Source: Escherichia coli (lineage in GTDB: Bacteria > Pseudomonadota > Gammaproteobacteria > Enterobacterales > Enterobacteriaceae). Taken from it: a stretch of 64,000 nt of DNA. Positions 9,776 through 11,186 of the stretch are shown one piece after another (position 1 is the first letter of the stretch; every line of letters begins with the position of its first letter). Under the pieces are notes generated by a model, which worked only from the letters and a program-made list of their open reading frames with translations, searched no databases and was not told where the DNA came from. The DNA is taken from assembly GCF_016026235.1 (NCBI RefSeq), contig NZ_CP065613.1. The stretch is one strand, 5' to 3'. Made by a program: the position numbers and the translations under genes.

Positions 9776-9975
9776 ATAGATTCGTGAATAGATACTTGAA
9801 TGTATTTTATTTTTTATCCATATGAAAAATAATAGTAAATCTATAAATCAGTTGCTATTGATGAATAGATACTAAAAAGCCGGAGCAGTCCCCTGAGGAA
9901 TCCCCAGAAAACAAGACAGGCATAGTGAGATGTGATCTAATTGATTGTGCTAACAATTTCAAGGAGATCACCACT

Positions 9976-10221
9976 ATGCCTGCACGTTCATTATGCCAAA
10001 ATTTCCTTAACAACATACTGGCCCCTTTGCATCTTTACCGTCAAAAATCACTGATTGACGCAACTAATGCTGTAATAAATGGCGCTTCCCTCACACTTAC
10101 CAGTATCGGGCGTCATTTAACCGGTACGGCATCAGTTAAAAACAAAATAAAGCGGGTGGATCGACTGTTGGGGAATCGACATTTGCAAAATGAGGTTTCC
10201 ACCATTTTTCAGCGAATTACC
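9976..10221 (+). pseudogene. IS10-like transposase, N-terminal 82 codons only, cut by the IS1 insertion
   Basis: MPARSLCQNFLNNILAPLHLYRQKSLIDATNAVINGASLTLTSIGRHLTGTASVKNKIKRVDRLLGNRHLQNE aligns with the IS10 transposase N-terminus; reading frame runs into the IS1 end at 10222. Confidence 0.6.
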
Positions 10222-10236
10222 GGTAATGACTCCAAC

Positions 10237-10740
10237 TTATTGATAGTGTTTTATGTTCAGATAATGCCCGATGACTTTGTCATGCAGCTCCACCGATTTT
10301 GAGAACGACAGCGACTTCCGTCCCAGCCGTGCCAGGTGCTGCCTCAGATTCAGGTTATGCCGCTCAATTCGCTGCGTATATCGCTTGCTGATTACGTGCA
10401 GCTTTCCCTTCAGGCGGGATTCATACAGCGGCCAGCCATCCGTCATCCATATCACCACGTCAAAGGGTGACAGCAGGCTCATAAGACGCCCCAGCGTCGC
10501 CATAGTGCGTTCACCGAATACGTGCGCAACAACCGTCTTCCGGAGACTGTCATACGCGTAAAACAGCCAGCGCTGGCGCGATTTAGCCCCGACATAGCCC
10601 CACTGTTCGTCCATTTCCGCGCAGACGATGACGTCACTGCCCGGCTGTATGCGCGAGGTTACCGACTGCGGCCTGAGTTTTTTAAGTGACGTAAAATCGT
10701 GTTGAGGCCAACGCCCATAATGCGGGCAGTTGCCCGGCAT
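10237..10740 (-). CDS. insB: IS1 InsB (expressed as InsAB' by -1 frameshift)
   Basis: 167 aa ORF overlapping insA, ...[49 protein letters not shown]. Confidence 0.9.
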
Positions 10741-10934
10741 CCAACGCCATTCATGGCCATATCAATGATTTTCTGGTGCGTACCGGGTTGAGAAGCGGTG
10801 TAAGTGAACTGCAGTTGCCATGTTTTACGGCAGTGAGAGCAGAGATAGCGCTGATGTCCGGCGGTGCTTTTGCCGTTACGCACCACCCCGTCAGTAGCTG
10901 AACAGGAGGGACAGCTGATAGAAACAGAAGCCAC
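10659..10934 (-). CDS. insA: IS1 InsA
   Basis: 91 aa [43 protein letters not shown]. Confidence 0.9.
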
Positions 10935-11186
10935 TGGAGCACCTCAAAAACACCATCATACACTAAATCAGTAAGTTGGCAGCATCACCCTCGTTATTAA
11001 AACTGGCGGAGAATGTGATTCGACATTCTCCACTCATACTAAACACACTGTCACTTGACGCAGGGCTGAAAGTTCTACAGCAACGGTATACCAATATGAT
11101 AATGGTTTACTAAATTTTCTGGGGATCCCTCAGGAGCAGTCCCCCACTCCGGCTTAACACGACAATCGCCTTTCAGCGAAACACAA

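Follow-up and report, generated by a model that had tools for sequence, protein, structure and literature searches.

The locus and its composite element

The window, that is, the whole 64-kb stretch of Escherichia coli DNA that was analysed, carries a 1241-bp composite of two insertion sequences at positions 9893-11133. It lies in the Escherichia serB-ytjB-lplA / deoD-deoB-deoA neighbourhood and is flanked on one side by lplA (8464-9480) and a short remnant of an HTH gene (9512-9661) and on the other side by deoD (11187-11906, minus strand), after which comes deoB. A 12.3-kb stretch of the window (3976-16302) is identical to part of contig UGFA01000002.1 of GCA_900449985.1.

The outer part of the composite is a copy of ISEc60 that has lost its middle. 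Its left arm (9893-10221, plus strand) corresponds to ISEc60 nt 1-329, is identical at 329 of 329 positions to the intact ISEc60 of CFSAN029787 (L001:501-829) and at 100% to at least 13 records annotated as ISEc60, and begins with the left terminal repeat, CTGAGGAATCCCCAGAAAA (9893-9911). The right arm (10990-11133, plus strand) corresponds to nt 1151-1294, and 145 of 145 positions are identical when it is read over 10990-11134 (nt 1151-1295); the end of the transposase gene lies in it (10991-11113; the last 40 codons and the stop), as does the right terminal repeat (11115-11133). In a repeat search of the window the two ends were found as 20-nt inverted repeats that are 95% complementary (9892-9911 and 11115-11134). 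The 821 bp between the arms, ISEc60 nt 330-1150, are absent as a clean deletion, and the ISEc60-derived part of the composite amounts to 473-474 bp (329 + 144/145). The truncated transposase gene (9976-10221, plus strand) has codons 1-82 only, and IS1 takes over from the first base of codon 83. Read on into IS1, it forms a chimeric ORF of 108 amino acids (9976-10302, plus strand), 82 from the N-terminus of the ISEc60 transposase and 26 from IS1 DNA. This ORF is among the genes called in the source assembly, and it is on record in the gene index on one contig at one place. The left ISEc60/IS1 junction is a perfect 12-bp palindrome (10216-10227), ATTACC followed by GGTAAT, in which ATTACC is native ISEc60 sequence (nt 324-329). 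Codons 357-396 and the stop are retained but codons 83-356 are deleted, and with them D97, D160, E289 and the YREK motif; since all the catalytic residues are missing, this ISEc60 copy cannot make transposase.

Between the two arms is an intact IS1 of the IS1A type (10222-10989, minus strand, 768 bp) with terminal repeats of 23 nt (10222-10244 and 10967-10989). It encodes insA (10659-10934, minus strand; InsA, 91 amino acids) and insB' (10237-10740, minus strand), the products of which match PF03811, PF12759, and PF03400 with E values from 1e-21 to 6e-78. The A6C frameshift motif, TTAAAAAAC, is present at IS1 nt 305, and there are 2 mismatches to the annotated IS1A copy of CEA106S. The nested IS1 appears to be fully functional. 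The nine bases on its two sides differ, CGAATTACC versus CTCGTTATT, and the 8-9 bp duplication that a simple insertion of IS1 leaves is not there. An IS1 that lacks this duplication is evidence for a secondary rearrangement. Four claims of the original prediction, which was made from the sequence alone, were borne out by this anatomy. It had 82 N-terminal transposase codons remaining before IS1, and the number is exactly 82 with IS1 beginning at codon 83; it had about 145 bp of the host element beyond IS1, and there are 144-145 bp; it had IS1 without a target duplication, and the two flanks are indeed unmatched; and it had an IS1-associated loss of most of the transposase gene, which agrees with two arms that are collinear with, and 100% identical to, an element from which 821 bp are missing.

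The insertion site and the length of the target duplication

The insertion point of ISEc60 is the loop of the intrinsic-terminator hairpin of deoD, and the two arms of the stem are now separated. The proximal (5') arm (11147-11155, minus strand) is found 31 nt beyond the stop of deoD; the distal (3') arm (9877-9885, minus strand) is 100% complementary to it and is followed by the T-run, which is seen as AAAAA at 9872-9876 on the plus strand. In the empty allele of E. coli USMARC-49610 (L007) the same site, read on the deoD strand, is an uninterrupted 12-pair terminator, AAGCCGGAGTGGGGGACTGCTCCGGCTT, followed by TTTAG. By comparison of the alleles, the native deoD terminator is lost in both the intact and the hollowed-out form of the element. 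Since both forms split it, transcripts of the deo operon probably run into the element. The right arm of ISEc60 has a terminator-like hairpin of its own on the deoD strand (11006-11033, minus strand), an 11-pair stem followed by CAGTTTTAAT, which may stand in for the deoD terminator; it is a consensus match, one of two such sites in the region where 1.5 are expected.

The element is bordered by an identical 12-mer, GGAGCAGTCCCC, in direct repeat at 9882-9893 and 11133-11144. It contains the 9-mer AGCAGTCCC (left copy, 9884-9892), which the original prediction had taken as a 9-bp target duplication and thus as the mark of a simple insertion; it had also proposed that the site be checked in related strains. 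The uninterrupted site was found in L007, where the duplicated bases are present once, AAAAAGCCGGAGCAGTCCCCCACTCCGGCTT. Comparison of the empty and occupied alleles confirms the simple insertion and the target duplication, but the length of the latter is probably 10 bp and not 9. The gain over the empty site upon insertion of the full-length element is 1304 bp, which is compatible with 1294 + 10 as well as with 1295 + 9. The base that precedes the 9-mer is G in each of the eight ISEc60 copies whose flanks match, and G is also the last base of the element in the 1295-bp reading; since every ISEc60 target starts with G, ISEc60 by itself cannot separate 9 from 10 bp. The 10-bp parse is favoured for three reasons. 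It gives the element the termini CTGAGG...CCTCAG, which align with the ends of IS10A, and relatives whose flanks are unambiguous show 10-bp duplications: CCCCATAGTA, CCCTGTCGGG, GGCTTAGGCC, AGCTTCCGCT, and CCCCACGGGG. Three within-genome pairs from Kosakonia have a 10-bp duplication, and since one Kosakonia duplication ends in T an 8-bp reading is excluded. A few relatives have a duplication of 9 bp or 7 bp. Only within-genome pairs of flanks were used for Kosakonia. Pairing of contig-end flanks across species was tried and left out, since palindromic targets recur and the matches were spurious. Judged from these ends and flanks, the duplication is most likely the 10-bp GAGCAGTCCC (left copy 9883-9892, right copy 11134-11143), which contains the 9-mer, and the element termini are CTGAGG...CCTCAG.

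Identity of the host element

In both arms the window copy matches, at 100%, elements to which NCBI gives the product name 'IS4-like element ISEc60 family transposase' (WP_001111632.1). Intact copies matched at 100% in both arms were found in the EIEC-type strains CFSAN029787, RMDEC332/364, and VL46 and also in FDAARGOS_943. By the NCBI annotation of these identical copies, the host element is ISEc60 and not IS10. The papers found to name ISEc60 mention it only in passing. Intact ISEc60 is 1294 bp long and has one ORF, without a frameshift, for a DDE transposase of 396 amino acids. This protein scores 360 bits on NCBIfam NF033591, for which the cut-off is 152, and matches Pfam DDE_Tnp_1 with an E value of 1.8e-20. 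With the 82-codon fragment in the window, NF033591 gives 45 bits (profile positions 1-43), which is under the cut-off of 152, and a Pfam profile search with the 82 amino acids alone gave no match. The family assignment was therefore made via the intact copy.

The hallmarks of the IS4 family are a single DDE ORF, the YREK signature, and a target duplication of about 10 bp (PMC2266710). ISEc60 has the DDE triad, the signature, and a target duplication of 9-10 bp. The Y-(2)-R-(3)-E-(6)-K signature of the intact protein is YSRRMQIEQNFRDEK (residues 282-296), a segment that is deleted in the window copy. In the IS10 and IS50 subgroups the termini begin with 5'-CT (PMC2266710). The termini of ISEc60 are CTGAGG, and the IS10-subgroup traits, 5'-CT ends and transposase similarity, are present in it, as judged trait by trait. 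The transposases of ISEc60 and IS10A are 36% identical over 372 amino acids (E = 5e-76), and their acidic residues D97, D160/161, and E289/292 align. The ends of ISEc60, CTGAGGAATCCCC / CTGAGGGATCCCC, are identical to those of IS10A, CTGAAGAATCCCC / CTGAAGGATCCCC, at 12 of 13 positions and have the same A/G asymmetry between left and right. Both elements have a single transposase ORF that starts about 84-107 nt from the left end, and their lengths are similar (1294 bp for ISEc60 and 1328 bp for IS10A). Thus, the prediction of an IS10-like host of the IS4 family holds with regard to the protein profile, the similarity to IS10A, and the ends.

On the other hand, the two elements differ in several respects. 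Their protein identity is low, the duplication is 9 bp in IS10 and probably 10 bp in ISEc60, and no Rfam match to RNA-OUT was found in the ISEc60 copy. The insertion hotspot of IS10 is NGCTNAGCN, whereas ISEc60 uses GG-N8-CC at the tops of hairpins. By the ISfinder convention, iso-elements share more than 95% identity in DNA or more than 98% in protein, and ISEc60, at 36%, is not an iso-IS10. 'IS10-like' is therefore right as a description, but the name of the element is ISEc60 and not IS10. The window copy has the same terminal repeats as other ISEc60 copies and a duplication of the same form, G-N8-C, as eight of them. It differs from them in lacking nt 330-1150, in having IS1 in their place, and in having no functional transposase.

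Alleles of the site and their distribution

Three states of the site were found. It is empty in E. coli USMARC-49610. In E. coli FDAARGOS_943 (L006) it is occupied by an intact ISEc60, at the same nucleotide and with the same duplication as in the window and with 0 mismatches to the reference. In the window it is occupied by the hollowed-out ISEc60 with IS1. The flanks of FDAARGOS_943 and the window are identical at 2996 of 3000 and 2500 of 2500 positions, that is, there are 4 differences in 5.5 kb. Among 5,426 complete E. coli genomes, ISEc60 is inserted at the deoD site in FDAARGOS_943 only. Since one genome in 5,426 has it, the ISEc60 insertion is recent and lineage-specific, and the IS1 event is younger still. 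Neither the left nor the right ISEc60/IS1 junction is found in any of the 5,426 complete genomes, and an intermediate allele, ISEc60 with IS1 and its 9-bp duplication, was not found in the collections searched. The series of empty, intact, and hollowed-out alleles supports formation of the composite in situ. On the same comparison, the IS1 event is one that took place at this site after the window strain and FDAARGOS_943 had diverged.

The hollowed-out element could instead have been made elsewhere and have arrived either by mobilisation in trans, in the manner of a MITE, or by gene conversion onto a resident intact copy. Both of its ISEc60 ends are 100% intact, and elements related to ISEc60 do have short multi-copy derivatives that keep their ends and duplications. 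However, the sibling genome FDAARGOS_943 has its intact copy at this very site and with this duplication, so that there is no need to assume a second, independent transposition to one nucleotide. In addition, the chimeric ORF at the junction is on record in just one place, and neither junction occurs in the complete genomes. We consider such an arrival from elsewhere highly improbable, and formation in situ is retained as the preferred reading.

Candidates that at first seemed to be related were set aside. The plasmids E700025 and E300010 were considered as sharing the right junction, but their IS1 lies 56 bp further into ISEc60 and has IS66 debris on its other side; they are therefore independent truncations. 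An IS1 in CEA106S that was considered to be at the same locus is an unrelated insertion into a yjjJ-like HTH remnant, without ISEc60, and strain 2452 is unrelated as well. Other IS1-truncated copies of ISEc60 are present on EIEC-type plasmids with different breakpoints and, by the positions of the breakpoints, damage to ISEc60 by IS1 is recurrent. There is no intact ISEc60 copy within the 64-kb window, and there are about 34-35 in the near-identical genome of FDAARGOS_943.

Formation of the composite

The likely course of events, in our judgement, is that ISEc60 was inserted, IS1 was then inserted into it, and an adjacent deletion promoted by IS1 followed. In the first step, which the allele comparison shows, a 1294-bp ISEc60 entered the loop of the deoD terminator by cut-and-paste transposition with duplication of the 10 bp GAGCAGTCCC. 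In the second, IS1 would have entered this ISEc60 copy, in the lineage of the window, either at nt 329/330 or at nt 1150/1151. In the third, an adjacent deletion would have removed the ISEc60 DNA between one end of IS1 and the other breakpoint. In a deletion of this kind IS1 transposes replicatively within the same molecule, its target being close by, and one copy of the IS1 target duplication would be lost with the deleted DNA. The outcome is the composite of 1241 bp in which both ends of ISEc60, the 5' hairpin, and the 82 N-terminal codons are intact. Adjacent deletion and recombination between insertion sequences both typically show themselves by a missing duplication (PMC11708052, PMC1525189). 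What is found here resembles the described adjacent deletions in that a full-length IS1 is kept, one flank is unchanged, the adjoining DNA is lost, and no duplication is present (PMC11708052, PMC1525189). It differs from them in that the lost DNA lies wholly inside another insertion sequence, which leaves the host genes to either side as they were.

The same citations name the main competitor as a recognised cause of missing duplications. If two IS1 copies had been inserted in the same orientation, one at nt 329/330 and the other at nt 1150/1151, homologous recombination between them would have removed the 821 bp together with one IS1 and left a hybrid IS1. The expected product is identical to what is seen, namely, one IS1 with no duplication and with flanks collinear with ISEc60, and, by its expected sequence, it is the same product that adjacent deletion gives. 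IS1 is also abundant; the median E. coli genome has it at about 10-11 places. This route, however, needs two independent hits within 821 bp since the split from FDAARGOS_943, an interval in which 4 bases in 5.5 kb have changed, and alleles with just one of the two insertions were not found. Adjacent deletion is preferred because one IS1 insertion is enough for it, where the other route would need two within 821 bp over a short evolutionary time, and recombination between two IS1 copies is accordingly rated as unlikely.

There are two other ways in which the structure could have come about, and together we give them hardly any credence. One is that the middle of the ISEc60 copy was already missing when IS1 entered it; a simple insertion of this kind would have left a duplication of 8-9 bp, and there is none. 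The other is an artefact of assembly across repeated IS copies. IS-rich genomes are prone to mis-assembly, but there is no positive evidence for it in this case; the structure lies within a 4.56-Mb contig that is on record in two samples, and ISEc60 and IS1 continue to the exact base at both junctions. IS1 insertion followed by adjacent deletion is thus kept as the account of the composite.

ISEc60, IS1, and the process by which IS1 hollows out its surroundings are all already known. What the composite offers is a clean example of how IS-rich Escherichia (EIEC, Shigella-like) let their own mobile elements decay by nested insertion and IS1-promoted deletion. Since the hollowed-out copy is only 53 bp shorter than intact ISEc60, typing by size or counting of insertion sequences from short reads would score it as normal. 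A suitable annotation is an ISEc60 pseudogene together with an intact IS1.

Mobility and possible residual activity

The composite had been predicted to be a MITE-like element of about 474 bp carrying an IS1. The anatomy is MITE-like in that the target duplication and the terminal repeats at either end are preserved and the transposase is dead; the ISEc60-derived part is 473 bp, but the unit between the repeats is 1241 bp owing to its IS1 cargo. The behaviour does not fit: the composite is present as a single copy at the ancestral site. With the junction ORF on one contig at one place, and the site the same as that of the intact copy in the sibling, no dispersal is seen and there is no sign that the composite ever moved. 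By these features the hollowed-out copy is a decayed copy and not an amplified family. It would be movable only if the transposase of another copy acted on its ends. Relatives of ISEc60 have short derivatives of 277-343 bp in Pragia fontium, 204 bp in Serratia sp. H1w, and 766 bp in Photorhabdus australis, which occur in several copies and keep both ends and their duplications. These short multi-copy derivatives indicate that relatives of ISEc60 can be mobilised in trans.

The left arm retains a conserved hairpin (9915-9983, plus strand) in which the Shine-Dalgarno sequence AAGGAG (9962-9967) and the start ATG (9976) are paired. The two strands fold equally well: the energy is -33.9 kcal/mol (z = -5.7) for the plus strand and -34.8 kcal/mol (z = -6.3) for the minus strand. 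Conservation of the stem extends to 21 relatives, which belong to at least eight genera, with 7 compensatory changes at one of its pairs (CG x12, UA x3, AU x3). By analogy, the hairpin resembles the IS10-type control of translation by a fold-back structure and an antisense RNA. An Rfam search of 9700-11300 at E <= 1 gave neither RNA-OUT nor any other family, and a consensus promoter scan of the left arm gave no sites. A possible outward extended -10 sequence, TGGCATAAT, was read from the minus strand at about 9991-9999.

The 329-bp left arm thus retains the terminal repeat to which transposase binds, the 5' hairpin, and a 108-amino-acid N-terminal fragment that is predicted to be expressible. 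By analogy with the multicopy inhibition of IS10 and with inhibitors that are truncated transposases, the repeat, the hairpin, the putative -10 sequence, and the fragment could damp other ISEc60 copies in trans, although we regard this as very unlikely. If it were true, copies hollowed out by IS1 would be a brake, beneficial to the host, on the approximately 35 active ISEc60 copies expected in the lineage.

Target choice of ISEc60 and its relatives

The duplications of ISEc60, eight of eight, fit the form 5'-G/G-N8-C/C-3', where the slashes mark the ends of the duplicated bases. Besides the deoD terminator, the sites include the tops of hairpins in a bidirectional terminator, AAAAAAGCCGGGGATAATTCCCCGGTTTTTTT (z = -7.9), and of hairpins associated with ibs and hok. 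In another case the element sits at the margin of a CRISPR repeat of type I-E, next to the hairpin of the repeat itself. Taken together, ISEc60 and its relatives are inserted non-randomly, at the tops of GC-rich hairpins that include terminators and REP-like repeats. Targeting of palindromes has a precedent in the IS4 family in ISRm22, which is found in REPs (PMC1525189, PMC2266710).

In this respect ISEc60 and its relatives are like other insertion sequences that target palindromes, namely, ISRm22, IS1397, ISKpn1, and IS621. For IS231A the target consensus is reportedly GGG(N)5CCC, as Hallet and co-workers are said to have described in 1994. The ISEc60 subgroup differs from all of these in being IS10-like and in having another consensus, and the trait belongs to the parent element and not to the hollowed-out copy. 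This side observation may be more useful than the hollowed-out copy itself. The choice of hairpin tops appears to extend across the Enterobacterales and, if it is undescribed, it would offer a tractable case of sequence- or structure-based targeting by an IS10-type transposase. The 88 distinct outer flanks that were collected from Photorhabdus, Xenorhabdus, Serratia, Pragia, Kosakonia, Arsenophonus, and others show a C-rich arm, an A/T loop, and then G-S-G directly before the element. The polarity of the target varies with the subgroup: it is GGG...CCC for ISEc60 and the Kosakonia elements and CCC(GC)...(GC)GGG for those of Photorhabdus and Xenorhabdus.

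Target sites of ISEc60 and its relatives

The tops of GC-rich hairpins are insertion targets of ISEc60 and its relatives; the sites considered are those of the copy in the window (target duplication at 9883-9892 and 11134-11143) and of the compared loci L001, L006, L008-L017 and L018-L114, which carry ISEc60 or ISEc60-like elements. The pattern G|G-N8-C|C fits 8/8 of the ISEc60 duplications, and the targets of this element include the deoD terminator, one bidirectional terminator, and hairpins associated with ibs and hok. In the relatives, which are from other Enterobacterales, the outer flanks run from a C-rich arm through an A/T loop to GSG before the element (n=88 distinct flanks), and subgroups among ISEc60 and these relatives differ in target polarity, namely, GGG..CCC versus CCC..GGG. 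One ISEc60 copy (L014:618-1912, GCA_031665325.1) lies in a type I-E CRISPR repeat; its duplication is CGAGTTCCC, or GCGAGTTCCC when read as 10 bp, and its right flank runs on as CGCGCCAGCGGGGATAAACC.

Some ISEc60 copies are close neighbours. In GCA_031665585.1 (L009/L010, JARKNL010000002.1, ~1015-1018 kb) a spacer of only 9 bp, GGATTTACC, separates a tandem pair whose outer flanks are GGATTTTCC, inside the hairpin GCGCGGGGATTTTCCCCGCGC. This tandem suggests that the same target was hit repeatedly, having been regenerated by the earlier copy. At L001, the locus of E. coli CFSAN029787, a second copy lies 1.6 kb from the first and both adjoin successive ibs toxin genes. The flanks of two intact copies in GCA_031665325.1, L013 and L015, do not match, which fits recombination of ISEc60 copies with one another and hence a chromosomal rearrangement in that genome.

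Short derivatives and the hairpin over the transposase start

Short ISEc60-like derivatives of 204-766 bp that keep both terminal repeats were found in Pragia fontium (L057-L060), Serratia sp. H1w (L071) and Photorhabdus australis (L070), and at L108. Duplications of 9-10 bp are present at some of them (L059, L070 and L071), and P. fontium has several copies, each with different flanks. These derivatives are genuine MITE-like members of the family.

In the window, a 69-nt hairpin (9915-9983) pairs the ribosome-binding site and the start codon of ISEc60. It is kept by 21 relatives and contains one pair that covaries; its antisense strand folds equally well. Just upstream of it, a minus-strand sequence (TGGCATAAT, ~9991-9999) may be an outward-directed extended -10. 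A search of this region against Rfam RNA-OUT gave no match.

IS1 copies and flanking host genes

A perfect 12-bp palindrome, ATTACC/GGTAAT, spans the left ISEc60/IS1 junction (10216-10227), where the IS1 terminus is the inverted complement of the native ISEc60 bases beside it. The palindrome could have arisen by chance (~5e-4) or from a preference in target choice that is linked to the IS1 end. A second, divergent IS1 of 767 bp (45270-46036) is 90.8% identical to the first. Like the first, it has no target duplication, its flanks being CTCGCTGTCG versus AAATTTTAAT, suggesting that the window has undergone a further rearrangement linked to IS1.

The native deoD terminator is now split, so deo transcripts probably read into ISEc60. 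In the right arm of the element, on the minus (deoD) strand, a hairpin with an 11-pair stem and a T-rich tail behind it (11006-11033), recognized by consensus match only, may end these transcripts.

Between lplA and the insertion is a 49-aa HTH-type ORF (9512-9661), a region annotated in related genomes as a 264-bp helix-turn-helix gene. In FDAARGOS_943 this gene has an internal stop and is labelled a pseudogene, and in strain CEA106S the region is broken by an unrelated IS1.
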